A stretch of DNA of 64,000 bases, from positions 1,571,479-1,635,478 of the forward strand of contig CAWFIF010000001.1 of NCBI GenBank assembly GCA_963815835.1, given 5' to 3'. Positions 9,287 to 48,409 of the stretch are shown one piece after another. The stretch's first letter is position 1. Each line of letters begins with the position of its first letter. The notes beneath the pieces were generated by a model that searched no databases, had not been told where the DNA came from, and worked only from the letters and a program-made list of their open reading frames with translations. Made by a program: the position numbers and the translations under genes. This DNA comes from an uncultured delta proteobacterium. GTDB lineage: Bacteria; Desulfobacterota; Binatia; Binatales; Binataceae.

Positions 9287-9558
9287 TGCAGGAGTCCTCG
9301 CGCGCGAATCGATTCGAGGAAACTCTCCACCTCGTGCCGAAGCACATTGCGATCGGCGCCACGAAATTTGGCCGCCAGACCGTCGATGATTTGATCGATC
9401 GAGCGCTCGCCGTCGCACAGCCGCACGATGGCGGCTCCGGTTTCATTCAGGAGCAGGGCCGCTTCGGGGAACAGAAGCATTTCCTGGTTCGCCACTGAAT
9501 CAAACTTGAGCCGCGCCCTCGATGCGAGCCGCGGTCGCCATGTGCGCTCGGCGTGCAT
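9283..9558 (-). CDS. pqqD: PQQ biosynthesis peptide chaperone PqqD
   Basis: 91 aa. ..QEMLLFPEAALLLNETGAAIVRLCDGERSIDQIIDGLAAKF..VESFLESIRARGLL matches the PqqD fold. The ATG at 9556-9558 overlaps the pqqC stop, and the stop overlaps the pqqE ATG. Confidence 0.7.
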   Translation of the reverse strand: MHAERTWRPRLASRARLKFDSVANQEMLLFPEAALLLNETGAAIVRLCDGERSIDQIIDGLAAKFRGADRNVLRHEVESFLESIRARGLLQ

Positions 9559-14600: not shown

Positions 14601-14870
14601 CAACGTCATCGTTCCGTCGTTGCCGTTGATCGACTGCATGTAGATCATGTTCTTGGCGCCGTTGACCTGCGCCTCGATCGGAGTGGCGACCGATTGCTCC
14701 ACCGTGAGCGCGTCGGCGCCGGTATACGTCGCGGTGGTCTGGATCTGCGGCGGAACGATGTCGGGGAATTGCGCGATGGGCAGCCGGAAAATCATCACCC
14801 CGCCCGCGATGACGAAGAAAATCGCGATTACGATCGCAACCGTCGGGTGACGGATGAAAAACTTCGACAT
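11682..14870 (-). CDS. RND-superfamily efflux permease (HAE1/AcrB-like)
   Basis: 1062 aa and 12-TM architecture. The N-terminus [43 protein letters not shown] is a typical AcrB start, with two large periplasmic loops. Confidence 0.9.
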
Positions 14871-14874
14871 GGCG

Positions 14875-16104
14875 CTAGCTCTGGCCGCTTGAGTTTGCGG
14901 CCGCCGGGGGCGACTGGCCGGCCGCTCCGGGAGTGCTCTCTACTGTCGGCGCGGCCGCGACGTGGGGGTTGACTTCCATTCCATCGCGAACCTTCTGGAG
15001 TCCTTCGGTTACAACGCGTTCGCCGGGCGCGACCCCGCTCTGGAGGAGCTGAAGGCCGCCCACCTGCTCGCCCATCGTGACGGTGCGCATCGTCACCTTA
15101 TTGTCCGAATCCACCACGGCGACCTGATATTGCCCCTGGGTCTGAAGCACGGCGTTTTGCGGCACCAAGAGCGCATTGTGCACGGTGCCGGTCGGGGCGC
15201 GGATTTTCGCATACAAACCGGGGCGCAGAATGTTGTCGGGATTCGGGAAGGTCGCTTGAACTTTGATGGTGCCGGTCTGGATTTCGACCTGCCGATTCAC
15301 AGCGTAGAACCGGCCCACGTATTTGTAGGTGCTTCCGTCAGAAAGGGTCATTCCGAGCTTGGGCCCGTTGTTAGGATCCCGGTTGATTTGATCGGAGAAG
15401 TGAAGATAGATCTGCTCGCTGATTGGAAATTCGACCTTGATCGGATCGAGTTGCGAGACGGTCGTAAGCAGCGAGGTGGTTGAGACGAGATCGCCGACCT
15501 GCGCCTTCGCGATCCCGGCGACGCCATTAACCGGCGAAGTCACCTTGGTCCATCCCAGGTTAAGCTTCGCGGTCTCGACTGCGGCCTGATCGGCTTGCAC
15601 TTGCGCTGCAGTTGCGCGGGTGGTCTGCGTTTGGTTATCGAAGTCTTGCCGCGATATCACTGCCTCCTTGAAGAGGCCCGTATAGCGGTCGAGATTCAGC
15701 TGGTTCAGCTTCAACTTCGCTTGCGCCTGGGCAAGATTGCCGAGCGCCTGGTCAAGAGCAGCCTGGTACTCGCGCGGATCGATCTCAAACAGCAGTTGTC
15801 CCGCATGCACTGCATCGCCGTCCCGATAATTCTGCTTGATTAGATAGCCGGAGATCTTCGGGTAAATGTCGGCGTTCACGAAACCTTCGGTCGTGCCGAC
15901 CGCCTCTGAGTACAATCTTACGTCCCGCTGGATGACATTGGTTACCGCGACGTCGAGAACCTGCGACGCTGCTGTCGGCGCAGACTTTCGGCAGCCGAAC
16001 GCCGCAACGGCCATCGCTGCCACGGAAATCCCGGCGGCGATGCATAGTATGGATCGCCCGATCAAAGCGTTTCGATGCGAGCTCATTCGAGTGCGATTCT
16101 CCAA
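14875..16104 (-). CDS. RND efflux periplasmic adaptor (membrane fusion protein, HlyD/AcrA family)
   Basis: Has a lipoprotein-like N-terminus, a coiled-coil hairpin (..[26 protein letters not shown]..) and beta-barrel/MP domains. It lies 5 nt upstream of the RND permease. Confidence 0.85.
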
Positions 16105-16220
16105 AGCGATGGTTATACCATAAGCAATTTATCTCCAAACAGCGTCTTTAGGTCCACCGCGTGCCTGGACGTCTCGCATTTCGCGATGGCTCGCATTTGT
16201 CGAAGTCGTGAGCCGTCTCA

Positions 16221-19717: not shown

Positions 19718-19804
19718 AAAGGTGCTCGGCATCGCGGGTATGGACTTTCTGCGGCGGCATGGTATGTCGATACCGCTCGACATCAAATGGAGATTGAGGT
19801 CCCG

Positions 19805-21973
19805 ATGATTGTGAAGTCCAGTCATCTCGCAGCAGTTGCAATCGGTTTGACGATCGGGGGGTTCAGCTTTTTGCATTACAGCGCCCATGCCGAGGCTCAG
19901 GAGTCTCCCGCCGCGGCTGCCGCGACGCCATCGGCTCCCGCGCAAGTTGATTCTGCCCGGCTGGTCAGCGCCGACAAGGAACCCGGCAATTGGATGACCT
20001 ACGGCCGGACCTACAGCGAGCAGCGCTTCAGTCCGCTCAACAAAATCAACGCCGACAACGTCAAGAACCTCGGGCTGGCGTGGTACTACGATCTCGATAC
20101 TGACCGCGGGCAGGAGGCGACGCCCATCGTGGTCGACGGTGTGATGTACATCTCGACTGCGTGGAGCATGGTGAAGGCCTTCGATGCCAAGACCGGCAAG
20201 CTACTATGGGACTTCGATCCCAAGGTAGGCCGCGAAATCCTGATCCATGTCTGCTGCGATGCGGTCAATCGCGGCGTCGCGGTGTGGAAAGGTAAAGTCT
20301 ACGTCGGCACTATCGATGGACGATTGATCGCGCTCGATGCAGCTACCGGCAAGCCGGTGTGGAGCGTTCAAACAACCGACAGGACCAAGCCTTACACCAT
20401 CACCTCAGCGCCGCGCGTGTTCAACGACAAAGTCGTAATCGGCAACAGCGGCTCCGAGTATGGTGTGCGTGGATATATGTCGGCCTACGAGACCGCGACC
20501 GGCAAGCTGCTATGGCGCACCTATACTGTCCCCGGCGATCCTTCCAAGAGATTTGAGAGCCCGGCGATGGAGAAGGCTGCCAAGACCTGGACCGGGAAAT
20601 GGTGGGAGGAGGGCGGCGGCGCCACCGCCTGGGGCGGCATCTCCTACGACCCGGACCTCGACCTGATGTACTTCGGTACCGCTAACGGTGTCGAATGGGA
20701 TCAGAAGCATCGCAGCCCTGGCGGCGGTGACAATCTGTACGTCGCCTCGATCATCGCGTTGAAGGGTTCGACCGGTGAGTACGCGTGGTACTACCAGGTC
20801 GTTCCCGGCGATGTGTGGGATTACGACGCGACCCAGGACGTGGTCCTCGCCGATCTGACTATCGACGGCAAGCTGCGCAAAGTGGCGATGCAAGCGGGCA
20901 AGGACGGCTACTTCTACGTGCTCGATCGCAAGACCGGTGAACTGATCTCGGCGAACAATTTCGTGCCGGTCAACTGGGCGAAAGGTATCGACCTGAAGAC
21001 CGGGCGCCCCATCGAGATTACGGCGGCACGCTACGACAAGACCGGCAAAACCTTCCAGATCACGCCGGCCCCAAGCGGCGGTCACAATTGGCAGCCGATG
21101 GCGTTCAATCCGCAAACCGGATTGGTCTATATCCCGGCGCAAGAGGAAGGTTTCCCGTTCGCAACGGACAAGAATTTCAAACCCACCACCGTCGGAAATA
21201 ACCTCGCCATCGATCTCGCAGCCGTGACCGTGGCGGAGCCCGCGGCAAGAAAGAAGGCGATGAAAGGTGAGAAAGGCTTTCTCCTCGCATGGGATCCGAT
21301 CCATCAGAAGGAGGTCTGGAGATACCAGTACATGGGTCCATGGGACAGCGGCATCATGACGACCGCCGGCAATCTGGTATTTCAGGGCAACGCGACCCAC
21401 GAATTCGCAGCCTATCGCGCGGACAACGGCCAGAAGCTATGGTCGGCGCCGACTCAGACCGCGGTCCTTGCGGGTGCGATGACTTATGAAGTTGACGGCG
21501 AGCAATACGTCGCGACGCTGGTGGGATGGGGCGGCAGCTATGCGATCCTCGGCGGGAGCCTTTCCACCATCTCGGGCCCGCAGCGCAACATCAGTAGACT
21601 GCTGGTCTACAAGTTGGGCGGCACCGCAACCTTACCGCCTCCGCCCGCTGAAGAAGTGAAGGTGCTCGATCCACCGAAACAGACCGCTAGCCCCGCGACC
21701 ATCACCGAGGGCAAGAAGCTGTATGGACGCAACTGCGTCATCTGTCATGGTGTCGATGTGATCAGCGGCGGACTCAATCCGGATCTGCGCTACAGCAAAC
21801 TCCTCGATGACGACGGATGGTACGACGTCGTGCTGGGCGGCAAGTTCAAGGATCAGGGGATGGTGTCCTTCGCCAAGAACATCAACAGACAACAAGCGAC
21901 GGCGATTCGCGCCTTCGTAATCCAGCGCGCGATCGATTCCAAGGCCGAGGAATCAAAGCAAGCGAAGAACTGA
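19805..21973 (+). CDS. PQQ-dependent alcohol dehydrogenase, quinohemoprotein type (PQQ beta-propeller + C-terminal cytochrome c)
   Basis: Signal peptide MIVKSSHLAAVAIGLTIGGFSFLHYSAHA. Vicinal-Cys motif ..IHVCCDAVNRGVAVW.. of quinoprotein ADHs, repeated W-containing propeller blades, and a C-terminal ..GKKLYGRNCVICHGV.. heme-c site. Confidence 0.85.
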   Translation: MIVKSSHLAAVAIGLTIGGFSFLHYSAHAEAQESPAAAAATPSAPAQVDSARLVSADKEPGNWMTYGRTYSEQRFSPLNKINADNVKNLGLAWYYDLDTDRGQEATPIVVDGVMYISTAWSMVKAFDAKTGKLLWDFDPKVGREILIHVCCDAVNRGVAVWKGKVYVGTIDGRLIALDAATGKPVWSVQTTDRTKPYTITSAPRVFNDKVVIGNSGSEYGVRGYMSAYETATGKLLWRTYTVPGDPSKRFESPAMEKAAKTWTGKWWEEGGGATAWGGISYDPDLDLMYFGTANGVEWDQKHRSPGGGDNLYVASIIALKGSTGEYAWYYQVVPGDVWDYDATQDVVLADLTIDGKLRKVAMQAGKDGYFYVLDRKTGELISANNFVPVNWAKGIDLKTGRPIEITAARYDKTGKTFQITPAPSGGHNWQPMAFNPQTGLVYIPAQEEGFPFATDKNFKPTTVGNNLAIDLAAVTVAEPAARKKAMKGEKGFLLAWDPIHQKEVWRYQYMGPWDSGIMTTAGNLVFQGNATHEFAAYRADNGQKLWSAPTQTAVLAGAMTYEVDGEQYVATLVGWGGSYAILGGSLSTISGPQRNISRLLVYKLGGTATLPPPPAEEVKVLDPPKQTASPATITEGKKLYGRNCVICHGVDVISGGLNPDLRYSKLLDDDGWYDVVLGGKFKDQGMVSFAKNINRQQATAIRAFVIQRAIDSKAEESKQAKN

Positions 21974-33253: not shown

Positions 33254-34735
33254 CTAGAAGGCGTAGATCAGTACGCCTTGCAGGGTGTCCTGCCCCTTCC
33301 ACTCGTGCTGAACGTCGTTGACTGGATTGACGAACTCATTGTTGAAGAAAACATGGTGATTGGACTGGTCGTGGCGGTATTCTGCGCGGACCAGGAATCC
33401 AGTCACGTCGGGTACTTTGTAGGTGAGCGTCTGAGTGATATCCCAGAGCGTCTGGTGAACCCCGCTACGCGCGCCGTCTTCATCGTCGAACATTTCGCCG
33501 CGGGTCGCGGATTCCCATGCGTTCCAATCGTAGACGATATACTGCGCTACACCCTGCCAGGTCGCACCATGCCCATTTTGAAATTTGCCCGTCTCGCTTC
33601 CGTACAGATACTCGGTGGCGAAAGTCGTATTGGGCAGGAAGGCCGGCTTGATGGTGACGATCGGATCCACCGCTCCGCGATACGAATTGGAATGTCCAAG
33701 CTGGTTAGGCCCGTAAATTCCATTGAGCACAAGGGCCACCGACTTGTCTTTGTTATTCAGGGTTAACTCGGTTTCGTAGTTGGGACCCCCATTGTTAAAG
33801 TTCCCAGGATTGTCCCATCCGTTGTTGAGCCCGCCGGTCGCCGCGAAGTAGTCGTTAAAGGTGTACGAGGCCCTTACTCCAGTCTGGGTAAAGGGACTAC
33901 CCAGGCCGAAGATATAGTCGCGTGATTCGTTGTAATTCTGGTTGGTATAGGTGGGAATCACTTCCTGATCCAGAAGTGTCACAAACCTGCCTGCCTGTAA
34001 GCTGATCCCCGAACCCACCGGAAGCGTGTAAGTCAGATAGTACTGAGTTGGATCGATCCAACGGCCCGAGAATCCATCCGGCGGCGAATTGGAGAAATGC
34101 GTACTGGCGTTAAGCGTTTCCGCAACCTGGCCGACATTGATGTCGGTTACGAATCCAACCGTGCCGTCCTTTTCGATGTGCAGATTTCCCTGGTTGAGCT
34201 GGAAGCCGTCGTTGTTATCGAAAGTACGGAGGTTGTTGGTTTCGTGGATCGGCTGGTTGAAGTTGTGGTCGTAGCCCGCATCGACCAGGCCATGGATGCT
34301 CACGCCGAGGTTGGTCGAGAGATCCTTTTTGGTCTGCGCGAGGTCGCCCTCAACCACCGCGACATGCTGGCCAATCGTGGCCGGACTCGGAGCGGCCGCG
34401 GGCGAAGGAGCATTCGCGGGCGCGGCCGGTGCCGCCACGGCCAACTGCGTCTTCATGTCCTTGATCTGCGACACCAGCTCAGCCTGCTGCTTTTGCATTT
34501 CCTCCAATTGCCTGCTGAGCGCGTCGATCTTCTTCTGCTGTTCAGACTCCGCGGTCGTCGTAGTTGTGGTGGTCGTTGTGGTGGTTGTTTTGCTGCTCCT
34601 CTTCTTATGATGGTGCGTCGGCGTCGGCGGCGCCTCCTGCGCCCATGCTCCTCGCAGCCCAGGCGCAAGCGCCGTGCCGACCGCGATCAGCGTCACGACG
34701 GCAAGCCGTGTCGTCCTCCCAGTTGACGTGGTCAT
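33254..34735 (-). CDS. Outer-membrane porin-like beta-barrel protein with N-terminal coiled coil and a 12-Thr tract
   Basis: Signal peptide MTTSTGRTTRLAVVTLIAVGTALAPGLRGAWA, then KKRSSKTTTTTTTTTTTTAESEQQ, then the coiled coil IDALSRQLEEMQKQQAELVSQIKDMKTQL, then a long beta-rich region ending ..GVLIYAF (terminal Phe). Confidence 0.5.
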   Translation of the reverse strand: MTTSTGRTTRLAVVTLIAVGTALAPGLRGAWAQEAPPTPTHHHKKRSSKTTTTTTTTTTTTAESEQQKKIDALSRQLEEMQKQQAELVSQIKDMKTQLAVAAPAAPANAPSPAAAPSPATIGQHVAVVEGDLAQTKKDLSTNLGVSIHGLVDAGYDHNFNQPIHETNNLRTFDNNDGFQLNQGNLHIEKDGTVGFVTDINVGQVAETLNASTHFSNSPPDGFSGRWIDPTQYYLTYTLPVGSGISLQAGRFVTLLDQEVIPTYTNQNYNESRDYIFGLGSPFTQTGVRASYTFNDYFAATGGLNNGWDNPGNFNNGGPNYETELTLNNKDKSVALVLNGIYGPNQLGHSNSYRGAVDPIVTIKPAFLPNTTFATEYLYGSETGKFQNGHGATWQGVAQYIVYDWNAWESATRGEMFDDEDGARSGVHQTLWDITQTLTYKVPDVTGFLVRAEYRHDQSNHHVFFNNEFVNPVNDVQHEWKGQDTLQGVLIYAF

Positions 34736-35022
34736 TCTCACTCTCGTGTCTCCTCCCATGCGGCGATGGCCGCGTTGTCGTGCACCCACACACGTAGGGC
34801 GTGCTCGTTGCTAGAGCCGGAGCGCTTGTGTTCAAGATTCATACCGCGCTGTAATCAGGTCTCGTCGTGCAAATATGTGCTGACTATTGATGAATCGAAA
34901 AGCCAACTAATCGGGCTGACGCCCGCAAAGCATGCATGTGCCAAGCAATTATGCAGGGCTGGGAATCGTGCATTTTGCAGCGTTACACATCCAGATTGAT
35001 ATGCGAGGGAGGCAGGAAACGG

Positions 35023-38476: not shown

Positions 38477-41400
38477 GTGAGCCGCGCGGTGATAGAAGAG
38501 CCTCCCGGTGAGGACGCGATGCGCTGCCCGACGTGCGGGACCGAAAACCCGGCATCCAAGAAATTCTGTGGTGATTGCGGCTCACCGCTGAGCAATCGCT
38601 GCCCGAAATGCGGCGCCGACAGTCCGCTCGACAAGCGATTCTGCGGCGATTGCGGAACCGCGCTCCCGGCCAATAGCTCTACACCCGCACCAGATGCTGC
38701 CACTGCGGAGTCTCACCGAACGGCCGAGGGCGAGCGCCGTCATCTGACAGTACTGTTCTGCGATCTGGTCAACTCAACCGGAATCTCCGCTCATCTCGAT
38801 CCCGAGGATTGGCACGACCTGGCCGCGGAGTATCAGCACAACGCCGCCGAGGCGGTGACGCGTTTCGGCGGCTATGTTGCCAAGTATCTCGGCGATGGGC
38901 TCCTGGTGTTCTTCGGCTACCCGCAGGCGCACGAGGACGATCCGGAGCGGGCGGTGCGCGCCGGACTGGCGATCGTTGATGGGATCGCGGCACTGAATGA
39001 TCGACTCGCCGACAAACCGGGCGCACTAAAGCTCTCGGTTCGCGTCGGTATTCATACTGGCGCGGTGGTCGTCGCGCAGGGTGGCGGCAAGGAAGCCGAC
39101 GTGTTCGGCGCCGCGCCCAATATCGCCTCGCGGGTCCAAGGCGTGGCGGAGCCCGATACCGTGATGATGACTTCGGCCGTGGTCGAGCTGGTGTCGGGCC
39201 GGTTCGTGGTCGAGGATCGCGGCGCTCATGAACTGAAGGGCATCGAGCAGCCGGTACGGATCTTTCGCGCCGTATCCGCCGGCCTGGCAAGAGGCCGCGG
39301 ACGGAGCTTCTCCGCCCACGAGCTCGCGCCATTCGTCGGACGCGACGACGAGATGCATCTGCTTTTGAGCCGCTGGAAACGGGTGCGTGACGGCCAGGGC
39401 CAGCTGGTGATCGTGACGGGGGAGCCTGGGATCGGTAAGTCGCGCCTGATGGAGGAGTTTCGAAGGCACATCAAAGGCGAGCCACATCTCTGGATCGAAT
39501 GCGCGTGCGCGCTGTTTTTCGCCAATTCGCCCTTCCACGCTGTTACCCAGATGCTTGACCAAGGCCTGGGTTGGCGCGGCGACGAGAGTCCGCAGGAGCG
39601 CGTGAGCGTTCTCGAACGGGTGCTGGAGCTATCCGGGATGAAAACCGGTGACGCGGTGCCTCTAATCGCGGAGATGCTGAACCTTCCGATCCCGGAGAAA
39701 TATCCGGCGCTGAGCTTCTCGGCGGAGCAAAGACGCAGGCGGCTGCTCGGCCTGTTGGCGGCATGGGTGTTCAGCGCGACGGGAAATCAGCCGCTGGTGA
39801 TCGTCATGGAGGATCTGCACTGGGTCGATCCATCGACGGTTGAGCTGATTCAGACCCTGGTCGAGCAGGGGGCCACGGCGCCGCTGATGCTGCTCTGCAC
39901 CGCGCGCCCCGAGTTCCGCTCGCCATGGCCGATGCGGGCGCATCACGCGCAGCTCACGCTCAATCGCCTCGATCAGCGCCAGACGCTGGAGTTGGTGGCC
40001 GCCGTGATCTCCCGCGCCGGGGTGACCCGGGAGCTGATCGACGCGGTGGTCAATCGCACCGACGGCGTGCCCTTGTTCGCCGAAGAACTGACGCGGCTGC
40101 TGCTGGAGGGCGACGGGCGCTCAGTGGTGAAGGATATCCCGGCCACGCTGCGGGACTCTTTGATGGCACGACTGGACCGGCTGGGGCGGGCCAAAGAAGT
40201 CGCGCAGGTTGCCGCGGTGATCGGACGAGATTTTTCCTATGCGTTGCTTCAGGCCGTCGCGCGGACGCCTGAAGCGGAATTGCAACTGACGCTGACGAAG
40301 CTGGCCGACGCCGAGTTGCTATACGTGCGCGGCATTCCGCCCGAGGCTACCTACCAGTTCAAACACGCGTTGATCCAGGACACCGCCTACGAAGCGTTGC
40401 TCAAGAGCAAGCGCAAGGAATTGCATCTCCGCGTCGCCAGGGCGATCAGCGAAAAATTCCCTCCGCTAGCGGAAGCGCAGCCAGAGATTCTCGCGCGGCA
40501 CTGGTCAGAAGCCGGTGAGACGGAGCCGGCGATCGCCGCATGGACCAAGGCGGCCCGCGCGGCCGAGGCGCGGCATGCGCTCAAGGAGGCCGAAGAGGAT
40601 TGCCGTCAGGCGCTCGCGATACTTAAAAATCTGCCGGAATCGCGGGAGCGCGACACCAGCGAGTTCACGCTCCTGACCCTGTTGACCTCAGTGCTGCACC
40701 GGAGCAGGGGATATTCCACCGGCGACTTGGGCGAGGTGCTCGAGCGCGCTCGTGTTATTGCGGAGAGGACCGGCAACCTGATCCTGCTCGTTCTACAGGG
40801 AATGGCGGCGTGGGTCGCCGTCCTGGTCTCAGGCGACTACTCCCGCGCCCAGGCGCTGGCTGATCAGCTACTCGACCTGGCCCAGCGCGAGGGCAGCGAC
40901 ACGAGTCTCGGCTTCGCTCACGCGGCTCAAGTGTCGTCACGCTTCTATCGCGGGGATCTCATCGGACTCGAGGAGCACTTTGCTCGCCTGCGCACCTTCT
41001 CCGAAGCTCCTGGTTTAAGAGACTATCCCGGTGCAGTTATGGGCCCAACGGGCTACGCGACTGAGGGCCTGTGGATCCTGGGTCATCCCGAAAAAGCCCG
41101 CAGCCGGATCGCCGACGCGATAGGTCGGGCCCGCAACGAGAAGAAAGCCTTCGACATTGCGGTCGGCCGAGATCTCGAGGCCTACCTTTGCCGCTGGCTC
41201 AAGGAACCTCAGCTGTGCGCAGATGCGGCCAGCGAAACCGTCGCGATTTCCGAAGAGCATGGCTTTTCGGACTACCGTGTTTACGCCTCCAAGATTCTGG
41301 GCTGGGCGCGAGCGCAGCTTGGCAAACCGGATGAAGGAGCGGCGCTCATCCGGGAAAATATGGCAGTCCAGGTCGAGGCCGGGGTACGCAACGATCTCAC

Positions 41401-41791
41401 CAATTCTCTCACCTTGTTAGCCGAGGCTCAGGCGTTGGACGGCAAGATCGATGAGGCCCTGCTCACGCTCGACGAGGCGCTGGTGGCGAACCCGGAAGAA
41501 CTTGTCTTTCGGCCAAACATCCTGACGTGGCGCGGACAACTGCGCCTCAGAACTGACAAGTTCGAATTGGCCGAAGCCGACTTCCGTGACGCGATCGCAT
41601 TAGCAGGGCAGATGAGTGCAAAGTCGCTCGAGCTGCGCGCGACGATGAGCCTCGCGCGGCACCTGCGCGACACCGGTCGTCGCGACGAGGCAGGCGCGAT
41701 GCTGGCCGAGATCTACAATTGGTTCACCGAGGGCTTCGACACCGCCGACCTGAAGGACGCTAAGGCGCTGCTCGACGAATTAAGCCAGTAA
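38477..41791 (+). CDS. Multidomain signalling protein: double zinc-ribbon + class III adenylyl/guanylyl cyclase + STAND-type P-loop NTPase + TPR repeats
   Basis: CPTCGTENP..CGDCG..CPKCGAD..CGDCG zinc ribbons. Cyclase core ..RRHLTVLFCDLVNST..YLGDGLLVFFGYPQAHEDDPERAV..VGIHTGAVVV... Walker A ..VIVTGEPGIGKSRL... Long helical/TPR C-terminus. Alternative start at MRCPTCG (38519). Confidence 0.8.
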   Translation: MSRAVIEEPPGEDAMRCPTCGTENPASKKFCGDCGSPLSNRCPKCGADSPLDKRFCGDCGTALPANSSTPAPDAATAESHRTAEGERRHLTVLFCDLVNSTGISAHLDPEDWHDLAAEYQHNAAEAVTRFGGYVAKYLGDGLLVFFGYPQAHEDDPERAVRAGLAIVDGIAALNDRLADKPGALKLSVRVGIHTGAVVVAQGGGKEADVFGAAPNIASRVQGVAEPDTVMMTSAVVELVSGRFVVEDRGAHELKGIEQPVRIFRAVSAGLARGRGRSFSAHELAPFVGRDDEMHLLLSRWKRVRDGQGQLVIVTGEPGIGKSRLMEEFRRHIKGEPHLWIECACALFFANSPFHAVTQMLDQGLGWRGDESPQERVSVLERVLELSGMKTGDAVPLIAEMLNLPIPEKYPALSFSAEQRRRRLLGLLAAWVFSATGNQPLVIVMEDLHWVDPSTVELIQTLVEQGATAPLMLLCTARPEFRSPWPMRAHHAQLTLNRLDQRQTLELVAAVISRAGVTRELIDAVVNRTDGVPLFAEELTRLLLEGDGRSVVKDIPATLRDSLMARLDRLGRAKEVAQVAAVIGRDFSYALLQAVARTPEAELQLTLTKLADAELLYVRGIPPEATYQFKHALIQDTAYEALLKSKRKELHLRVARAISEKFPPLAEAQPEILARHWSEAGETEPAIAAWTKAARAAEARHALKEAEEDCRQALAILKNLPESRERDTSEFTLLTLLTSVLHRSRGYSTGDLGEVLERARVIAERTGNLILLVLQGMAAWVAVLVSGDYSRAQALADQLLDLAQREGSDTSLGFAHAAQVSSRFYRGDLIGLEEHFARLRTFSEAPGLRDYPGAVMGPTGYATEGLWILGHPEKARSRIADAIGRARNEKKAFDIAVGRDLEAYLCRWLKEPQLCADAASETVAISEEHGFSDYRVYASKILGWARAQLGKPDEGAALIRENMAVQVEAGVRNDLTNSLTLLAEAQALDGKIDEALLTLDEALVANPEELVFRPNILTWRGQLRLRTDKFELAEADFRDAIALAGQMSAKSLELRATMSLARHLRDTGRRDEAGAMLAEIYNWFTEGFDTADLKDAKALLDELSQ

Positions 41792-41843: not shown

Positions 41844-42455
41844 TCATGAATGGGTGAGGTAGGTCAGGCGCGCTTCGAGTAACTCATGCAGAACCTGGTC
41901 CAGTTGCGGGACTTGAAGCAAGCCAGTCAAATCAACCGGGTCTATTCTGATTACCTCGGAGTCGCTCAGCGCTCTGACTGTATAGTGCTGGCGTCCGTGG
42001 GCCAGCAACGCATGGACGCCGAAGTGATCTCCCGGTCCAAATTTTCGAATCTCGCCCGTTTCCGGGCCCGCCGCGGTTCCTTCAAGTTGGCCGGACCGCA
42101 CCAGGTAAATGAAGTCGCTGGGTTCGCCTGCCGAATAGACCGCGTCGCCAGTGCGATAGTGTTGGAGCAACAAGGTCTTGCCTCCGAATGCCGCCGCGAT
42201 CAGGAACATTGCGATTCCAATCACTAGAAGTGGCTGCAGGAACAAGAATGTCAGCAGTAGCACTGGGATCAATGTCAGCCATGCAACGACTCCGATCAGG
42301 GCCGGGATGGCGACTGTGACGCGCGCGACCCTGGTCAGAGTTACAGGCCAATTACCGCGAGCGATTCGGCGCGAACCCAGACTTGGGGGGATAGCGTGAG
42401 AACTTTCGGTAGTCACCCGTTGGATGCTCCTATCATATGACCCGATGGATGACAC
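41844..42455 (-). CDS. Small membrane protein with two N-terminal TM helices and a C-terminal cyclic-nucleotide-binding (CAP_ED) domain
   Basis: TM segments ..VAIPALIGVVAWLTLIPVLLLTFLFL.. and ..LLVIGIAMFLIAAAF... cNMP domain ..GDAVYSAGEPSDFIYLVRSGQLEGTAAGPETGEIRKFGPGDHFGVHALL... The start is uncertain; the ORF overlaps the upstream NapC-like stop by 43 nt. Confidence 0.6.
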   Translation of the reverse strand: MSSIGSYDRSIQRVTTESSHAIPPSLGSRRIARGNWPVTLTRVARVTVAIPALIGVVAWLTLIPVLLLTFLFLQPLLVIGIAMFLIAAAFGGKTLLLQHYRTGDAVYSAGEPSDFIYLVRSGQLEGTAAGPETGEIRKFGPGDHFGVHALLAHGRQHYTVRALSDSEVIRIDPVDLTGLLQVPQLDQVLHELLEARLTYLTHS

Positions 42456-43132
42456 ATCGTGCAGGAAATGGTTCCTTTCAGGATCAACGCCGAGACCTTT
42501 CCCTGCGTATCAAGATGCAGGCGCTGAGAGAGAAAGAACGAAGAGTCGATGTGACACTTCAAACAAAGTTCGTTGGGGAACGGCCCTCGCAAATGGATTG
42601 GCGTCGTATACCAGCCGGTCACGTACCGGTAGGCATCATTCAGGCCTTGCAACTTCGCACGCATCGTACCATGCACTCCGTAAGTGGCATGGCACGAGTA
42701 ACAGGCGGTCCCGGGTTGAGTGGGAGCGAAGTTAAGCTTGAAATGAAGCGCCGATAGCGATTGGCTCTTCGGGTCCGTCACATCATGAACATAGGGCTGC
42801 ATCGCGACATGACACGAGCCACAGAAGTTTTCCTGCTTGGCGTATTCGAAGATGGTGAAATTGGCGAACGGCAGTAGCATCGCCGGCAGGAACACCAATC
42901 CGAGGGTGTTGATGAAAAGGGCCCGGCCGTGAGTCACGCGCTGAGGAAAAAAAATCGAACCCAGCACTACAAACACCAGAATCGCGGTGCTGAGGGTCAA
43001 AGACAGTACGATTCCCCAATCCACCCAGGTGCCCCATCCCTCACCCAGGATGTGGCCGGAATGGATGAAAGCGAGGAGACCCGGATGAGTCGTTGCCCAT
43101 CGCTCGATCGGAGTTATGGTGTCAGTCGGCAT
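42413..43132 (-). CDS. Membrane-anchored tetraheme cytochrome c, NapC/NirT/NrfH-like
   Basis: N-terminal TM helices, then four CxxCH sites (CGSCH, CYSCH, CLKCH, CTMCH). Confidence 0.7.
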   Translation of the reverse strand: MPTDTITPIERWATTHPGLLAFIHSGHILGEGWGTWVDWGIVLSLTLSTAILVFVVLGSIFFPQRVTHGRALFINTLGLVFLPAMLLPFANFTIFEYAKQENFCGSCHVAMQPYVHDVTDPKSQSLSALHFKLNFAPTQPGTACYSCHATYGVHGTMRAKLQGLNDAYRYVTGWYTTPIHLRGPFPNELCLKCHIDSSFFLSQRLHLDTQGKVSALILKGTISCTMCHPSGHMIGASNG

Positions 43133-43158
43133 TGCGCGAATAGTCTTGCTAGGGCCGC

Positions 43159-43533
43159 TTACTTTCCGAGCGACCGAATGTAGGCAACCAGATCGGCGAT
43201 ATCGGCGTCACTCAGCTGACCCTTAAACGCCGGCATCAATGGCGAAGCCTTAAGCGCCGTGCCTCCGTTGTTGATGACGTCGGTCAGCTTTTGATCAGTG
43301 AATTGTGCCATCTTGGCCTTATCGGTCCATGGCACCGGTGGAACCTGCACACCAAGGGTTGCCAACAGCACGCCGTCGCCGGCACCGGTTGCGCCGTGGC
43401 AGCCGGCGCATTTCGCGGCGGCGATTCGTGCCCCGTTGCTCGCATCCGCGGCGAAGGCTGCCGATACGGGTGCAAACGCGGCGATCATGAGAGCGGCAAT
43501 CACGCGATTCATGTATTCCCTCCATTGCTCCAT
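43159..43533 (-). CDS. Monoheme class-I c-type cytochrome
   Basis: Signal peptide, then ..AAKCAGCHGATGAGDG.., with a C-terminal ..DIADLVAYIRSL.. typical of small soluble cytochromes c. Confidence 0.8.
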   Translation of the reverse strand: MEQWREYMNRVIAALMIAAFAPVSAAFAADASNGARIAAAKCAGCHGATGAGDGVLLATLGVQVPPVPWTDKAKMAQFTDQKLTDVINNGGTALKASPLMPAFKGQLSDADIADLVAYIRSLGK

Positions 43534-43542
43534 CGATCGAAT

Positions 43543-44937
43543 TCAGAATTCATATATCAATTCGAGATTGGTCCCGTAGTCAAATCGATCGCCCGCCAGC
43601 GAAGTGTTTTGATTGCGCACGCCGAGAATTGTCAGCCTCACCTCGCTACCATATAAGAGGCCCCGGCGCTTGAGATCGTTCAGCGTATCCCCCGGCATCA
43701 CGAATTTGCTGACATCGGTCTGGATCTGCAAGGCCAAACCGACCTGATCGTTGTCGGTTGACTCGTTATCGATCAGCCATCCGAACTCCGGGGCAAAGGT
43801 AATGTGGCCGGTGGGATTGATGATATCTCCAACCACGCCGCCGACGGTACCAGAGGCGCGCGGGTTCAGCTGAGGAGTTGCGACCAAACGATCGAAAGTG
43901 AACAGGATGCCCTCGCGGTTGAGCGCCGAACCCTGCACCGACGGTGCGATCCAGTTGCGTGTCGCGCCAAAGATATTGCTGTAGAGCTGCGTGCCGAGGA
44001 CGCCACGTTGAGCCTCGAGCACGAACAATTCTCCGTCACTCGCGGTAGAGTTGGCCGTGCTGCCCATTGCGCGGAATGACACGCTGCCGTTGTAGCTGAA
44101 GCTGCGCGTTACGGATACCGCCCAAAAGTTGCGGTTCAGGTTCATCTGCGCGCCGGGAACCCTGCCGTTCGCATAGCTAAGCGCCCAGCTACCTTCGATG
44201 AAGTAGTCGCTCCAATTGAAATTGAAGTTGACCCCCATCACTTTCTTTTCAGATTCGCGCCTGCTTGGTGTGGTGAGGGTCAGTCCGGGCTGCGTCTCAC
44301 CCAAAGTCAGAAAGTACAGGACATTGAAATTGGAGAGATTGCCGAGCTGGATGTTGTTCTTGGCGATCGAAAATCCGTCAAAGAAGTTGTTGAACCATAG
44401 TCCGTTGTGCAGGAAGAGCGGAATGCGTCCCACCGACAGCGTCATGTCGAGTGGCAACCTGTCATTGGGGCTCAGCCAGTTAAACGGCGTCCCCTCGAAG
44501 AACAATGCTTGTGGCGTTGCGCCGAAGCTGCCGGTCCATCCGTGATCGTTGCCAAATTTGTAGAAGGTTGGTTCCCGGTCTCCGTACTCCAGCGGCCGGA
44601 ATAGCGCGAAAACGCGCTGGGTGGCGGTTAGCTGTAAATTGGTTTGGAGGTTGACCTCGGGAACGATAAGGTCATTGTGCTGATTCTGCAGTTGATCGTC
44701 GAGTATCTGCACCCTTGCGAGGCCGTTAACATCGAGCCGTGGAGAAAGCTCCTCGCCAAACAGAGAAAACCCAGGATCCCAGATCTTGCCCGGCGACAGG
44801 AAGTCGCTGCCAAATATGGTGACCGCCCATCCCGATTTCGGCCACATCATGCTCAACGAGAGCAACACAACCAGCCACACGCACGAATATTTTCGGGTGG
44901 CTGCCATGTTAAATCGAGGTGACATTGCTGGGCGCAT
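43543..44937 (-). CDS. Outer-membrane beta-barrel protein (porin-like), within the cytochrome operon
   Basis: Signal peptide ..YSCVWLVVLLSLSMMWPKSGWA. Alternating amphipathic beta-strand pattern and Asn/Gly/Tyr/Phe-rich. Ends ..LELIYEF. Confidence 0.6.
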   Translation of the reverse strand: MRPAMSPRFNMAATRKYSCVWLVVLLSLSMMWPKSGWAVTIFGSDFLSPGKIWDPGFSLFGEELSPRLDVNGLARVQILDDQLQNQHNDLIVPEVNLQTNLQLTATQRVFALFRPLEYGDREPTFYKFGNDHGWTGSFGATPQALFFEGTPFNWLSPNDRLPLDMTLSVGRIPLFLHNGLWFNNFFDGFSIAKNNIQLGNLSNFNVLYFLTLGETQPGLTLTTPSRRESEKKVMGVNFNFNWSDYFIEGSWALSYANGRVPGAQMNLNRNFWAVSVTRSFSYNGSVSFRAMGSTANSTASDGELFVLEAQRGVLGTQLYSNIFGATRNWIAPSVQGSALNREGILFTFDRLVATPQLNPRASGTVGGVVGDIINPTGHITFAPEFGWLIDNESTDNDQVGLALQIQTDVSKFVMPGDTLNDLKRRGLLYGSEVRLTILGVRNQNTSLAGDRFDYGTNLELIYEF

Positions 44938-44946
44938 GATGCCGAT

Positions 44947-46593
44947 CTACTTTGCCAGCGAGACGCTTCCTTCATAGGTCTTCATATCGACGATCCTCAG
45001 TTTGGGTATGACATCAGCAACCCCGAGGTCGCGCAGGAAGTGCGCCGGGAAATTCCGGTAGCGCAACCGCACGCTCAACCTCAGCGGACCGGTCGCATCG
45101 ACGGGTACGCTTACACGGTACGTGGCGGTTTTGCTCTTGAGCGGCGGAATACCTTCCTTGAACACTCGTCCCGCGAATGGGAAGCCTTGCAGGAAAGTTG
45201 GGTTCGGCGGGGGAGCGAGAAACGGCGCGGGACCGAGAAGCCGATTCGTGGTGCTGATAGCTTCCGATTGGGTGCCGAGGAAGTTGGTGATTACAAAGGT
45301 AGCTTCGAGGTTAAGAAGATCGCTGTCATATGGCAGGGTCCCATCTTGAACCGCCATGCTCTCGTAGTCGCGCAAGTCCTGGTACTGATCATAGTCGCCC
45401 GACTCATAGATCTTTTCCCCACGCCCATCCAGCACTTTTATGTCAAGCCAGACCTGGCGCTCGGAGGCAAAGCCCGTCGGCAGATTGTGACCTGCGCCCG
45501 AGTTGGTAACAGTCACGTCGAAGCGCATCGTGGAACCGGGACGGACGCTGTCGGGGTGGCTTACATCGATCGTCGCAGCGTTGCGCAGGAGGGTTTCGCG
45601 CTCAGAATCGAGATGCGTCTGGAGTTCCGCAAATCCCTTATCGCCGAGGAAGAGCTCATTCTTGCCGAAGTCCTTTATCACCGAATAATCAGGGCCGGTG
45701 AACTTATGACTCGATTTATGGCGGCGTGGCGCTGTGGGAAAAATACCGTTGTTTACGATGTAGCCCTCGGGCAGCTCCGAGTGAGGAGTCGGCTTACCGG
45801 CTTCCGGACCCATATGGCAGTCTTCGCAGACGATACCACGCCGCGCGTACGGGCCATTCTTCCACTCACTGTATGCCTCTTCCAGACGGAAGCCGTCCGG
45901 AGTGAAGACGTCATGGCATGCGCCGCATAGGTGTCCCGAGGTAAACAGCGGAGAGTAACGCGACTTGTGCGGCGTCTTGATGAGACGAAGGGACGGATCG
46001 GATGGAGCGCCCGGTTCGTCGGAGCCATAGTATGGCCCATACACCGTCGGTTCCGGATCGCCCGGAACCGGAAGCGGAATCTGACCAGTGGCTTCGACGA
46101 AGTTAGCGCTCTGCGAATGGCACGTCATGCAAGTGACGCTCTCCATCGCGATCGAGGAGCGTTTGCTGTTCGATTCGATGGCGCTCTCGCCCGAGGAAAT
46201 TCCGATCCCGCTATGACAGCGCACGCAAAAGGTGCCGAGACTCCCCCCTGTACCATTCAACACGAAAGAATTGAATGCGATGAACACCGGACTGTGTTGC
46301 GCATACGCATGCATCGAGGTCGCCCACTCGTTGTACTGAGTAGGATGGCAGGTCTGACAGGTCGTCGCGGGAAGGAAGACGGTTTGCTTGGGACTCTTCG
46401 GAGGCGGAACTGTTGCAAGCCGAGTCAGTCCAGGACTTGTGCCGCAAGCATAAAACACCCCGACCACGGCAAGTGCCGCGAGAGTGGCCGCGATCGCCCG
46501 ATAGTTTACCCCTTTCCGTCGCGGGGACGCATGTGGGCGCCGACCCGCACCACGGGGAACCTCATCAGCGAACGGTTTGCTCCGGTTACTCAT
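44947..46593 (-). CDS. Pentaheme c-type cytochrome (N-terminal membrane anchor/signal)
   Basis: Five CxxCH sites (CQTCH, CVRCH, CMTCH, CGACH, CEDCH) in 548 aa, with an N-terminal hydrophobic segment AIAATLAALAVVGVFYAC. Confidence 0.8.
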   Translation of the reverse strand: MSNRSKPFADEVPRGAGRRPHASPRRKGVNYRAIAATLAALAVVGVFYACGTSPGLTRLATVPPPKSPKQTVFLPATTCQTCHPTQYNEWATSMHAYAQHSPVFIAFNSFVLNGTGGSLGTFCVRCHSGIGISSGESAIESNSKRSSIAMESVTCMTCHSQSANFVEATGQIPLPVPGDPEPTVYGPYYGSDEPGAPSDPSLRLIKTPHKSRYSPLFTSGHLCGACHDVFTPDGFRLEEAYSEWKNGPYARRGIVCEDCHMGPEAGKPTPHSELPEGYIVNNGIFPTAPRRHKSSHKFTGPDYSVIKDFGKNELFLGDKGFAELQTHLDSERETLLRNAATIDVSHPDSVRPGSTMRFDVTVTNSGAGHNLPTGFASERQVWLDIKVLDGRGEKIYESGDYDQYQDLRDYESMAVQDGTLPYDSDLLNLEATFVITNFLGTQSEAISTTNRLLGPAPFLAPPPNPTFLQGFPFAGRVFKEGIPPLKSKTATYRVSVPVDATGPLRLSVRLRYRNFPAHFLRDLGVADVIPKLRIVDMKTYEGSVSLAK

Positions 46594-46900: not shown

Positions 46901-48409
46901 TCATACAAGTTCCGCAGGCTCGACGGTGCGCGAAAGGGTCTCCGCCGGTGTGGGGCCGCGACGCTGGCCGAAGAAGGGCTTGAGAATCAGGTAGACCACG
47001 TCGCGTATCCGCATGAAGCGCGTGAAACGGCGCAGGAGCCGAACCGTCTGCAGCGGATAATGAAGCAGCTTGTAACGGAATATTCTGCGGAAACCCGCGT
47101 TGCGCTCGCGGTTGATCACCTCGCCCGGCAGGCAGGTCCGATCGATCTCGGAGCACTTGAAAAACTTGAACCAGTCGCGGTCCTCGTCCACCAGGTTGCG
47201 GCGGATATATTCCTGCCACAACGGGGTGCCGCGATAGACACACAGGCGGTTGAAGTTGAAGGTGTCGAGCGGAAGCCGCGCGGCAAAATCAAAAGTCGCT
47301 CGCAGGTCGGCCACGGTCTCATCGGGGTTGCCTACCACGAAGAAGCCGTGCACGATTTCGATCCCCGCCCGCTTGGCATTCGTGACCGCGGTCTCAACTT
47401 GCTTAAGGGTTTGCTCCTTCTCGAGCCGGTCGAGGACCTTCTGACTGCCGCTCTCGATCCCGAACATCACGGTGCGGCAATTGGCCTTTGCCATCAACGG
47501 ATACAGATGCTCGGCGACCGAATCGACTCTGCCCTCGCAACCCCAGTGGATAGCCGGACCGCTCTCGATTAGCCCGTTGCAGATGGCTTCGATCCGCCTC
47601 GGTTGCAATAGGAAATGATCGTCGACAAAGTACACCGCACCGTAGCCGTGTTCCCTCAGATGATTGAATTCCGCGAGCACATGCTGATGGCTGCGGGCGC
47701 GCCATTTATGCTGGTTGAAGCCCGGAATGTCGCAGTAAACACAATGGCGTGGGCATCCGCGCGACGCCTGCATCGTGGTGAAACGGTCCATTGACAGAAC
47801 CGCGGGCACATCCAGCGGCATCGACTCGACGAAGTCCAGCGCGAGGCTTTCGCGGTCCGGAAAAGGCCACTGGTCGAGATCGCGCTCGACCGCGCGGTCC
47901 GGATTGTTTACCACCTGGCCGTCTCGCGCCCAGGTGAGCCCGGCGACCGCCGCGGGATTGTCGAGCTGCTCAAGCAGGTCGAGAATCAACTGCTCGCCGT
48001 CACCGCGGCAGACAAAGTCCACCTCGCTGCATTGCAGTTTCACCAGCGGCGCGTTCAACGTCGCGAACACGCCGCCGATGGCGACTTTGACCTTGGAATC
48101 GGCGGCGCGGATCTGGCGGGCGAGGATCCTGGCGTACGGATAGCTGGTGGTGCTCAGAAAACTCAACCCGACCAGTTGCGGCCGTCGCATGCGAATCTGC
48201 TCGATGATGACCTGGTTTGGAGTCGCGGGGTTGGCCTGATCGAACATCACGCATTCATGGCCGGCACGCTTTAGCACCGCGGAGAGCGACATGATTCCGA
48301 TCGGTGGGAACCCCATGATGCGCAGGTTGCCGTTTTTCGCGCGCCCGGCTGTCGGCACGGCGTAAAATTGCGGATCGCGAACATGGATTAGAAATACCAA
48401 CATGGCCAC
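46901..48409 (-). CDS. B12-binding-domain radical SAM protein
   Basis: N-terminal cobalamin-binding Rossmann fold (..GFPPIGIMSLSAVLKRAGHECVMFD..VGLSFLSTTSY..VAIGGVFAT..), then ..ASRGCPRHCVYCDIP.. (CxxxCxxC). Confidence 0.8.
   Translation of the reverse strand: MAMLVFLIHVRDPQFYAVPTAGRAKNGNLRIMGFPPIGIMSLSAVLKRAGHECVMFDQANPATPNQVIIEQIRMRRPQLVGLSFLSTTSYPYARILARQIRAADSKVKVAIGGVFATLNAPLVKLQCSEVDFVCRGDGEQLILDLLEQLDNPAAVAGLTWARDGQVVNNPDRAVERDLDQWPFPDRESLALDFVESMPLDVPAVLSMDRFTTMQASRGCPRHCVYCDIPGFNQHKWRARSHQHVLAEFNHLREHGYGAVYFVDDHFLLQPRRIEAICNGLIESGPAIHWGCEGRVDSVAEHLYPLMAKANCRTVMFGIESGSQKVLDRLEKEQTLKQVETAVTNAKRAGIEIVHGFFVVGNPDETVADLRATFDFAARLPLDTFNFNRLCVYRGTPLWQEYIRRNLVDEDRDWFKFFKCSEIDRTCLPGEVINRERNAGFRRIFRYKLLHYPLQTVRLLRRFTRFMRIRDVVYLILKPFFGQRRGPTPAETLSRTVEPAELV

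Follow-up and report, generated by a model that had tools for sequence, protein, structure and literature searches.

Pairs of a pentaheme c-type cytochrome and an outer-membrane porin are encoded in the ptdABCDEFG cluster of marine Alpha- and Gammaproteobacteria, Nitrospinota/Nitrospirales and Planctomycetota, named in the Elbon/Glass preprint (bioRxiv 10.1101/2023.11.21.568154). In addition to the pentaheme PtdA and the porin PtdB, the products are an FAD/NAD(P) oxidoreductase (PtdC), a tetraheme cytochrome of the c554 type (PtdD), a protein combining a cyclic nucleotide monophosphate (cNMP)-binding domain with 4Fe-4S clusters (PtdE), a membrane protein (PtdF) and a decaheme cytochrome (PtdG). 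The preprint mentions the pair in several more phyla, proposes a putative porin-cytochrome complex and calls its function 'completely unknown' (bioRxiv 10.1101/2023.11.21.568154). The pair family has been reported to be highly transcribed in an ocean oxygen-deficient zone. Here, we analysed a 64-kb stretch of DNA from an uncultured member of the Binatia (contig CAWFIF010000001.1, hereafter the window), which harbours a minus-strand operon of five genes whose first two code for such a pair. The operon is a land-dwelling variant of the marine PtdAB module, named but uncharacterised, and it looks more like an enzyme with a substrate channel than like a classical electron conduit.

A functionally characterised relative of the pentaheme cytochrome is MccSep (ExtKL, GSU2937-2936), a periplasmic polysulfide reductase with a soluble substrate. 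Four of its hemes have bis-His ligation, heme 2 is ligated by a His and by Cys239, and a selenocysteine (Sec) residue, Sec325, reaches in from the D-G-U-P loop of an immunoglobulin (Ig)-like domain (bioRxiv 10.1101/2025.11.18.688581). A 45-kDa porin-like protein is encoded next to MccSep in Geobacter (PMC5877670). ExtI and MccSep together are the closest functional precedent for the pair described here.

Two other types of systems resemble the operon by composition. The Sideroxydans lithotrophicus system MtoA-MtoB-MtoD-CymA/ImoA and the Shewanella system MtrCAB share with it a multiheme cytochrome, an outer-membrane barrel, a periplasmic monoheme class-I cytochrome and an inner-membrane NapC/NirT tetraheme (PMC4412085; bioRxiv 10.1101/2022.01.10.475773). 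In the NrfH-NrfA and NirT-NirM(c551)-NirS systems, a periplasmic heme enzyme is likewise joined to a membrane tetraheme of the NapC/NirT/NrfH type, with an optional monoheme cytochrome c. The features of the operon are as follows, CXXCH being the heme-binding motif.

44947..46593, minus strand: PtdA-like pentaheme c-type cytochrome lipoprotein, 548 residues, five CXXCH
43543..44937, minus strand: PtdB-like outer-membrane beta-barrel with 18 predicted strands, 464 residues, no CXXCH
43159..43533, minus strand: periplasmic monoheme class-I cytochrome c, 124 residues with a signal peptide, one CXXCH (CAGCH)
42413..43132, minus strand: membrane tetraheme cytochrome resembling NapC/NirT/NrfH, putative quinol dehydrogenase, 239 residues, two transmembrane helices followed by four CXXCH
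41844..42455, minus strand: fifth gene of the operon, coding for a protein with two transmembrane helices and a cytoplasmic domain of the cNMP-binding fold, 203 residues
46594..46900, minus strand: non-coding stretch of 307 nucleotides 5' of the pentaheme gene, probable promoter/regulatory region judged by its position

An earlier, sequence-only reading of the window had proposed an operon of four co-directional, tightly spaced minus-strand genes. All four are real, with exactly matching coordinates in the list of open reading frames (ORFs) of the window, and gaps of 9, 9 and 26 nucleotides separate the pentaheme, barrel, cytochrome c and tetraheme genes. That proposal was one gene short, however. 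The cNMP-fold gene (41844-42455) overlaps the tetraheme gene by 43 nucleotides and travels with the other four in related genomes, so that the unit comprises five genes. Outside the operon, CXXCH occurs in a single ORF of at least 80 residues in the 64-kb window, which codes for a pyrroloquinoline quinone (PQQ) dehydrogenase with a cytochrome c domain, and such a clustering of cytochromes is therefore far beyond chance.

The assignment of the core to PtdAB rests on comparisons with loci from related genomes, referred to below by L numbers, two of which (L014 and L016) were taken as ptd loci by gene content matching the description in the preprint, not by accession numbers. The window pentaheme is 29-33% identical over ~520 residues to the PtdA proteins of L006, L014 and L016, which represents full-length homology, and has the motifs RLEEA.SEW and GH..PTGF..ER in common with PtdA. 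The window barrel is 28-30% identical to the PtdB-type barrels of the same three loci; for the barrel at the PtdB position of L014, identity is 30% over 355 residues (E 6e-18). As L014 and L016 have the ptd gene content and their first two genes are homologous over their full length to those of the window, the core of the window operon is a PtdAB member.

The remaining part of this operon differs. No counterparts of ptdCDEFG, i.e. flavoprotein, c554-type tetraheme, cNMP-plus-4Fe-4S protein, membrane protein and decaheme, were found in the window, where the monoheme cytochrome c, the NapC/NirT-like tetraheme and the cNMP-fold protein with two transmembrane helices stand in their place. A cNMP-binding-fold protein thus recurs in both gene sets. 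PtdD as a counterpart of the NapC-like tetraheme was rejected, the two being unrelated, and so was PtdE as a counterpart of the small cNMP-fold protein, since they share the domain alone. Moreover, PtdA is a lipoprotein in the window operon and a soluble periplasmic protein in ptd loci. The hosts of window-type operons are soil lineages, which do not appear in Table S7 of the preprint, whereas ptd hosts are marine or saline. The earlier suggestion of a possibly undescribed system must therefore be split: the pentaheme-porin pair has already been named PtdA/PtdB, with the same hypothesis attached, but neither the cytochrome c/NapC-like/cNMP-fold arrangement nor the soil lineages are in the ptd preprint, the sole paper using the ptd names according to a full-text search. 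The existence of the same core module in soil lineages is a first addition made by the window.

Each of the 14 distinct loci that were examined has the barrel gene next to the cytochrome gene; identities range from 86% down to ~27%, and the loci come from at least five phyla. The pair is found in metagenome-assembled genomes (MAGs) of the Binatia type at 46-86% barrel identity (L001, L003, L007, L009-L012 and L017), in one Rokubacteria MAG and one Aquilonibacter (Eremiobacterota) MAG, in Gammaproteobacteria at ~30% identity (L006, L014-L016) and in a planctomycete with a complete genome, Bremerella sp. T1. In the latter, the barrel is the 513-residue product of the downstream gene; an unannotated gene upstream of the cytochrome, coding for 811 residues, was considered for this role and rejected. 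All-against-all clustering of ORFs, which took in 11 of the loci, showed the pentaheme and the barrel in 11 of 11, the cytochrome c in eight, and the NapC-like and cNMP-fold genes in seven each. The cytochrome c gene lies downstream of the barrel gene in eight of these loci, and also in L017, L021 and L022. No flanking gene is common to the 11 clustered loci, the flanks differing in every one of them. The identities of the pentaheme and of the barrel fall in parallel (r = 0.98 over 10 loci), which is weak evidence, as any two co-resident genes would correlate. The possibility that the barrel is a generic porin without conserved synteny, raised from the outset as a way in which the conduit proposal might fail, thus does not hold, and the data support the view that the barrel is dedicated to the cytochrome.

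The pentaheme cytochrome comprises a signal peptide with a lipobox Cys (Cys50), a linker of ~25 residues, a five-heme domain of helical build and, at the C-terminus, an Ig-like beta-sandwich that bears the motif GHNLPTGFASERQVW. Its AlphaFold2 model consists of the helical heme domain and the beta-sandwich; linker residues 51-75 are of low confidence, and residues 446-472 are conserved yet disordered in the monomer model. Pfam gave generic multiheme matches only (c554, c7 and c3), the NrfA-type Cytochrom_C552 model being below its cut-off. A database search yielded 168 relatives, of which 50 were aligned.

The N-terminal anchor first assigned to this protein of 548 residues with five CXXCH motifs must be reassigned as the signal peptide of a lipoprotein. 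Cys50, the sole Cys outside the heme motifs, is followed by Gly-Thr and aligns with the lipobox Cys (...[AG]-C-G-[TYF]) in nearly all relatives of at least 50% identity that have complete N-termini, and the pentaheme is therefore a lipoprotein and not helix-anchored. In the planctomycete relatives (35-40% identity, 640-720 residues), the Cys50 column sits in an extra N-terminal CXXCH that belongs to a PSCyt1-type monoheme domain. As for the gammaproteobacterial PtdA proteins, they have an ordinary signal peptide, without lipobox or such a linker, and they are predicted to be periplasmic (Table S8, bioRxiv 10.1101/2023.11.21.568154). Since these non-lipidated proteins are nonetheless paired with PtdB, the pairing needs no surface display.

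The linker is relevant to one explanation of the pair, namely that the barrel exports or anchors the pentaheme lipoprotein, with the N-terminal linker running through the lumen, comparable to RcsF within OmpA/C/F or to the plug-and-barrel pair LptD-LptE. The 25 low-confidence residues (51-75) that follow the lipidated Cys would lend themselves to this, and the strict co-inheritance and parallel divergence of the two proteins (r = 0.98, 10 loci) also speak for it, with the reservation on co-resident genes made above. However, the pairing persists in Gammaproteobacteria, whose PtdA lacks both lipobox and linker, and the conserved polar lumen and long conserved internal loop of the barrel are more typical of selective channels. 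We regard this explanation as very improbable.

Several lines of sequence evidence place the pentaheme in the c552/MccSep fold. The family profile matches the sequences of PDB entries 5ZE8 (E 5e-11), 9WT8 'MccSep' (E 4.5e-5) and MccA (E 9e-5), and the NCBIfam ExtKL model (NF040886) is weakly matched by all 50 aligned family members (best E 6.9e-18), the window protein reaching 47.3 bits, below the cut-off of 250. The likeness to MccSep, a remote sequence homology (profile E 4.5e-5), extends to five c-type hemes in a helical cap, to an Ig-like stem that provides a G-H-x-x-P-x-G loop beside heme 2, and to the clustering of the gene with that of an outer-membrane porin-like protein of 45-50 kDa (PMC5877670). 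There are also differences between the two. The Sec/Cys of the loop is replaced by Phe375 in the window protein, and the heme-ligating Cys239 aligns with Leu237/Glu238. MccSep is soluble, whereas the window pentaheme is lipid-anchored. Unlike the Geobacter ext cluster, the operon has no rhodanese (ExtH) or ExtJ. ExtI is annotated as a member of the phosphate-selective porin family and the window barrel has no Porin_O_P match, which sets the two barrels apart by annotation, not by direct comparison. As for the low-potential pentaheme cytochrome c552 of Thermochromatium tepidum (PDB 5ZE8), identity is only 16-19%, a Cys is found where PtdA has Glu238, and insertions make the window pentaheme ~120 residues longer.

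Only four non-motif His residues (95, 209, 296 and 369) are invariant in the family for five hemes, His100 being Leu or Ile in gammaproteobacterial PtdA. As four invariant His for five hemes match the situation in MccSep, with four bis-His hemes and one special heme, heme 2 might have a non-His distal side and represent the reactive site. The GHNLPTGF loop is conserved in the Ig-like domain, and Phe375, at the position of the MccSep Sec, is nearly invariant. Glu238, which aligns together with Leu237 with the Cys region of both MccSep and c552, is invariant across all PtdA-type sequences examined; along with Glu239, Glu243 and Asp228, it belongs to a set of invariant carboxylates around the putative active site. 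The idea that the pentaheme might fall into a characterised family of reductases with soluble substrates is thus borne out for the fold, as MccSep is such an enzyme, but not for the chemistry, the catalytic Cys/Sec pair being absent. Membership in the NrfA, HAO or ONR families was rejected, as neither their fold nor an active-site signature (CXXCK heme or Tyr cross-link) was found. The relatives point to sulfur chemistry, but with Glu/Phe in place of the Cys/Sec pair the window protein probably catalyses another reaction. The link of PtdA by fold and motifs with the polysulfide reductase MccSep, with different catalytic residues, is a second addition made by the window.

A pentaheme paralogue of 864-877 residues with six CXXCH motifs adjoins the cassette in two Binatia-type MAGs (L007, 3565-6159; L011, 8510-11143). 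It has a weak cytochrome P460-like N-terminal domain, the motif GHSFPSG and, in L007, a lipobox-like N-terminus. In the column of PtdA Glu238, which corresponds to the Cys-ligand region of MccSep, it has a Met. This type of large paralogue is not present in the window.

The second protein of the operon has the features of an outer-membrane barrel, as proposed initially: a signal peptide, a conserved N-terminal segment of ~30 residues, a C-terminal Phe (...LIYEF) and an AlphaFold2 model with 18 strands (mean predicted local distance difference test score 80.8). Residues 33-66 are conserved yet disordered in the monomer model. The structural neighbours of the barrel are 18-strand substrate channels of the MOMP/AlgE/OprD type, and its sequence has no match in Pfam (MtrB_PioB and Porin_O_P included), in NCBIfam or among PDB sequences. 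Whereas a word-based search recovered 67 barrel relatives only, a full hidden Markov model scan of 1.84 billion representatives recovered 549 clusters at the 50% identity level, 445 of them at E <= 1e-10. The pair family thus amounts to a few hundred clusters, from at least five phyla in the loci examined, and its barrel has no Pfam model. Conservation is strongest in the polar strand register and in a long loop (326-363), as expected of a selective lumen, but this pattern would also fit an internal protein contact.

Long N-terminal extensions of low complexity are seen in many barrel relatives. A check of seven long PtdB relatives (662-1255 residues) for fusion to a cytochrome found no CXXCH; their extensions are of low complexity, and several are Pro-rich. 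The only apparent barrel-cytochrome fusion in the database, P0182, was considered as a natural, Cyc2-like fusion of a barrel with a cytochrome c and rejected, because a truncated barrel whose last strands are gone is joined to mid-cytochrome; either a deletion inside the locus or faulty assembly would account for it. A Cyc2-type heme motif fused to the barrel is also absent from the window protein, which has no CXXCH.

These features bear on the proposal, made in the sequence-only reading and also in the ptd preprint (bioRxiv 10.1101/2023.11.21.568154), of a true porin-cytochrome conduit, in which the pentaheme would sit on the cell surface, the barrel would form the path through the outer membrane, and the cytochrome c and NapC-like protein would connect them to the quinone pool, so that acceptors that are insoluble or outside the cell, Fe(III) or Mn(IV) for instance, could be reduced. 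That the proteins are not MtrA/B/C or OmaB/OmbB was correctly seen. Pfam and NCBIfam scans revealed no homology to MtoA/MtrA decahemes or MtrB/PioB barrels, and the multiheme protein has a globular, enzyme-like fold with an Ig domain in contrast with an elongated wire. A wide barrel of the Mtr/Pcc type (20-28 strands, MtrB/PioB or OmbB type) enclosing a cytochrome is not found here. Barrels of the MOMP/AlgE/OprD type, with 18 strands, lack the width to surround a multiheme domain; MtrB needs 26 strands for MtrA. Nor does the operon encode a periplasmic multiheme cytochrome with 8-12 hemes that might insert into the barrel, its other cytochromes being the monoheme and the membrane tetraheme proteins; it lacks a deca- or octaheme partner, and a 10-kDa monoheme protein cannot bridge the membrane.

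The location of the pentaheme is equivocal. It has an outer-membrane-type lipobox, which favours a conduit, but the face of the outer membrane cannot be read from the sequence, and homologues exist that are not lipoproteins, such as the gammaproteobacterial PtdA predicted to be periplasmic. The 9-nucleotide spacing and universal synteny of the cytochrome and barrel genes would also suit a conduit, and the conserved segments that are disordered in the models (barrel 33-66 and cytochrome 446-472) could be mutual docking elements. The operon has the same kinds of genes as the Mto cluster, with a multiheme, a porin, a monoheme (MtoD) and a NapC/NirT protein (PMC4412085; bioRxiv 10.1101/2022.01.10.475773). 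In addition, a Geobacter strain keeping only extHIJKL, which encode ExtI and the MccSep-type pentaheme, still reduced ~50% of Fe oxide and 75% of Mn oxide (PMC6148476). Nevertheless, no heme motif is present in the window barrel or its seven long relatives, no periplasmic multiheme protein is available to span the barrel, and the characterised member of the pentaheme fold is a periplasmic enzyme. These points weaken the conduit proposal, and we consider a conduit unlikely.

The third gene codes, as anticipated, for a small soluble cytochrome c, of class I by Pfam PF13442/PF00034 (Cytochrome_CBB3, E 7e-14). Its nearest solved relatives are cytochrome c6 and CcoP, and it is also related to c551. 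It is likely to be the direct redox partner of the pentaheme, since planctomycete PtdA carries a fused monoheme domain instead. As for the tetraheme protein, its likeness to NapC/NirT proteins is borderline: it has four CXXCH motifs, and most of its 32 database relatives carry PF03264, one of them being named 'NapC/NirT family' by NCBI, but the window protein itself scores 23.9 bits against PF03264, for a cut-off of 24.1, and it has two N-terminal transmembrane helices rather than the usual one. It scores 24.5 bits with the TIGR NrfH model. The best PDB match of the family profile, NrfH 2J7A_C, covers the transmembrane helix and heme 1, at an E of only 0.063. Met111, Lys160 and three non-motif His are invariant in the family alignment. 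We presume that this protein belongs to the NapC/NirT/NrfH family as a divergent member.

The cNMP-fold protein has two transmembrane helices, a Pfam cNMP_binding match (E 5.7e-17) and no DNA-binding domain. Its gene always follows the NapC-like gene and is syntenic in L001, L003, L007, L009, L011, L017, L018 and L019. Whereas L018 and L019 have a phosphate-binding cassette close to canonical, that of the window copy is degenerate (FGVHALLAHGRQHYTV), so that binding of a cyclic nucleotide by the latter is uncertain. In L019 (2610-4348), the cytochrome c, NapC-like and cNMP-fold trio occurs without PtdAB, which makes it a separable supply module. Wherever they occur, the NapC-like and cNMP-fold genes lie side by side or overlap (L019 2610-4348; L018 377-1660; window 41844-43533). 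We met no description of this conserved pairing between a quinol-dehydrogenase-type cytochrome and a cNMP-fold membrane protein.

In other loci, the core is served differently. In L004/L012 and L021, a PtdA-PtdB-cytochrome c trio faces a divergent gene set instead of the NapC-like module. One product of this set is a cNMP-plus-4Fe-4S protein; another fuses a periplasmic multiheme part (about eight CXXCH) with one transmembrane helix and a cytoplasmic pyridine-nucleotide-disulfide-oxidoreductase (Pyr_redox) domain. In L021 it adds a 300-residue protein without Pfam match, taken to be membrane-bound by analogy with PtdF. This arrangement is seen at 924-5658 in L021, from the Aquilonibacter MAG, and at 11946-16636 in L004, from a MAG (L004/L012) that bears the label 'uncultured delta proteobacterium'. 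The set has the look of a transmembrane unit exporting electrons from the cytoplasm outwards. The accessory genes are thus interchangeable, with NapC-like and cNMP-fold genes in the window and flavoprotein, Fe-S, membrane and periplasmic multiheme protein genes in L004, L021 and the canonical ptdC-G. The same core is wired either to the quinone pool, by a NapC/NirT-type protein and cytochrome c, or to a transmembrane route with a cytoplasmic flavoprotein, a third addition made by the window. These alternative wirings narrow the role of the module to that of a terminal electron sink. The interchange with an export-type set is also our main reason to favour electron flow towards PtdA, and on balance reduction appears moderately more probable than oxidation.

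With the same architecture, the pentaheme might instead oxidise a small inorganic donor entering through the barrel, such as Fe(II), Mn(II) or sulfur or nitrogen in a reduced compound, its electrons passing by the cytochrome c to a terminal oxidase and by the NapC-like protein uphill to the quinone pool, as proposed for MtoA-MtoD-CymA/ImoA or HAO-c554-cM552. Class-I cytochromes c akin to c6, c551 and CcoP usually feed oxidases, and a NapC/NirT protein and a monoheme shuttle share one operon, as in the Mto cluster. An aerobic or microaerobic life seems to prevail among the carriers of the module, which are Binatia, Rokubacteria and planctomycetes, Bremerella for one. Furthermore, the invariant carboxylates Glu238, Glu239, Glu243 and Asp228 could bind a metal cation. 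Against this stands the replacement of the NapC-like module in sister loci by the set of a cytoplasmic NAD(P)H-type flavoprotein and Fe-S, membrane and periplasmic multiheme proteins, a layout for an export route rather than for uptake, and nothing in the window points to lithotrophy. ImoA is itself reported as a quinol oxidase (bioRxiv 10.1101/2022.01.10.475773). An oxidative role seems to us improbable, to much the same degree as a conduit.

We favour a five-gene respiratory operon whose core is a pentaheme oxidoreductase with a dedicated 18-strand channel, which agrees with the periplasmic respiratory module offered as an alternative in the sequence-only reading, and we give this enzyme-plus-channel mechanism as a whole an even chance of being right. 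Gene order, heme counts, folds, homologies and synteny are shown by the analysis; we infer from them on which side of the membrane the pentaheme sits, which way the electrons run, that heme 2 is catalytic and what the channel does. The two-helix NapC/NirT-like tetraheme protein would oxidise quinol, and the monoheme cytochrome c would ferry the electrons over the periplasm into the heme chain of the pentaheme. The latter would be held by its lipid anchor, most likely at the periplasmic face of the outer membrane, beside its channel. The electrons would end at one heme, heme 2 by homology, with a non-His distal side, where a small substrate would be reduced in a pocket holding the invariant Glu238 and the GHNLPTGF loop of the Ig-like domain. 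The barrel would house no cytochrome and would serve as the passage of a small soluble substrate or product to or from the heme site, and the cNMP-fold membrane protein might be a partner or regulator of the NapC-like protein.

A number of points weigh against the enzyme-plus-channel mechanism. Alignments, not geometry, underlie what is said here of the heme ligands, the size of the pore and where Glu238 lies. The catalytic Cys and Sec of MccSep are both absent (Leu237/Glu238 and Phe375), and the analogy with that enzyme is one of fold only. The NapC/NirT assignment of the window tetraheme lies 0.2 bits under the Pfam cut-off. A lipoprotein multiheme cytochrome beside a barrel is also a hallmark of surface-exposed conduits. 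Class-I monoheme cytochromes c usually have high potentials and, together with NapC/NirT proteins, also fit oxidative pathways (Mto, HAO/c554/cM552). Lastly, we know of no PtdA/PtdB family member that has been studied experimentally, and hence of no substrate or activity.

It is tempting to speculate further that PtdA and PtdB form a structurally new outer-membrane redox complex, docked via barrel residues 33-66 and cytochrome residues 446-472, which would either pass electrons across the outer membrane or perform a novel heme-Glu chemistry on an environmentally common substrate. Such a complex would be widespread in soil Binatia, Rokubacteria, Eremiobacterota, planctomycetes and marine bacteria, and would be fed by at least two electron-input systems, among them the NapC/NirT cytochrome with its cNMP-fold membrane protein. 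Taken in full, this scenario is a long shot. If a trans-outer-membrane conduit built on an 18-strand barrel did prove true, it would change the view of what extracellular electron transfer requires. Residues Glu238, His369, Phe375 and Lys479, together with cultured carriers of ptdA and ptdB homologues (Bremerella sp. T1, Roseibium aggregatum, Tistlia consotensis and Sulfidibacter corallicola), offer concrete handles for experiments.

The 307-nucleotide stretch upstream of the operon is bounded by the stop codon of a B12-radical-SAM gene (46901) and the ATG of the pentaheme gene (46593). Because of its position only, it is probably the promoter/regulatory region of the operon; promoter and terminator scans found no sigma-70 consensus site or terminator on its minus strand, and an Rfam scan gave nothing useful. 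The G+C content of the cassette (0.564-0.569 over 42001-46000) is slightly lower than that of its surroundings (~0.60-0.645; window overall ~0.60), which, with a different genomic context in every related MAG, is consistent with movement as a unit.

Both neighbours of the operon were considered as members and rejected. The B12-binding radical SAM gene (46901-48409, minus strand), on the same strand, is not found at that position in other loci; its product resembles BchE, HpnJ and ApyD, all well below cut-offs. On the other side, adjacency of the adenylate-cyclase-domain gene (38477-41791, plus strand), which converges on the cNMP-fold gene, is not conserved elsewhere. Its product of 1104 residues combines a double zinc-ribbon, an adenylate/guanylate cyclase domain, an AAA_16 ATPase domain and TPR repeats, and scores 500 bits with the NCBIfam TOMM kinase/cyclase fusion model, below the model cut-off.

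Farther away in the window, the sole c-type cytochrome outside the operon (19787-21973, plus strand) is a PQQ-dependent alcohol/glucose dehydrogenase with a beta-propeller and a C-terminal cytochrome c domain, of the quinohemoprotein type. A resistance-nodulation-division efflux pump (AcrB-type, 1062 residues), a membrane-fusion protein and a TonB-dependent receptor with a CarboxypepD_reg domain are encoded at 11682-18668 (minus strand), and a BBP2/OmpL-like porin at 33254-34789 (minus strand); the pump, receptor and porin represent ordinary outer-membrane functions unrelated to the cassette. Finally, a gene for a radical SAM/SPASM-domain enzyme (8138-9418, minus strand) adjoins an ORF of 405 residues without Pfam match (6934-8151, plus strand), and the two may constitute a peptide-maturation locus.

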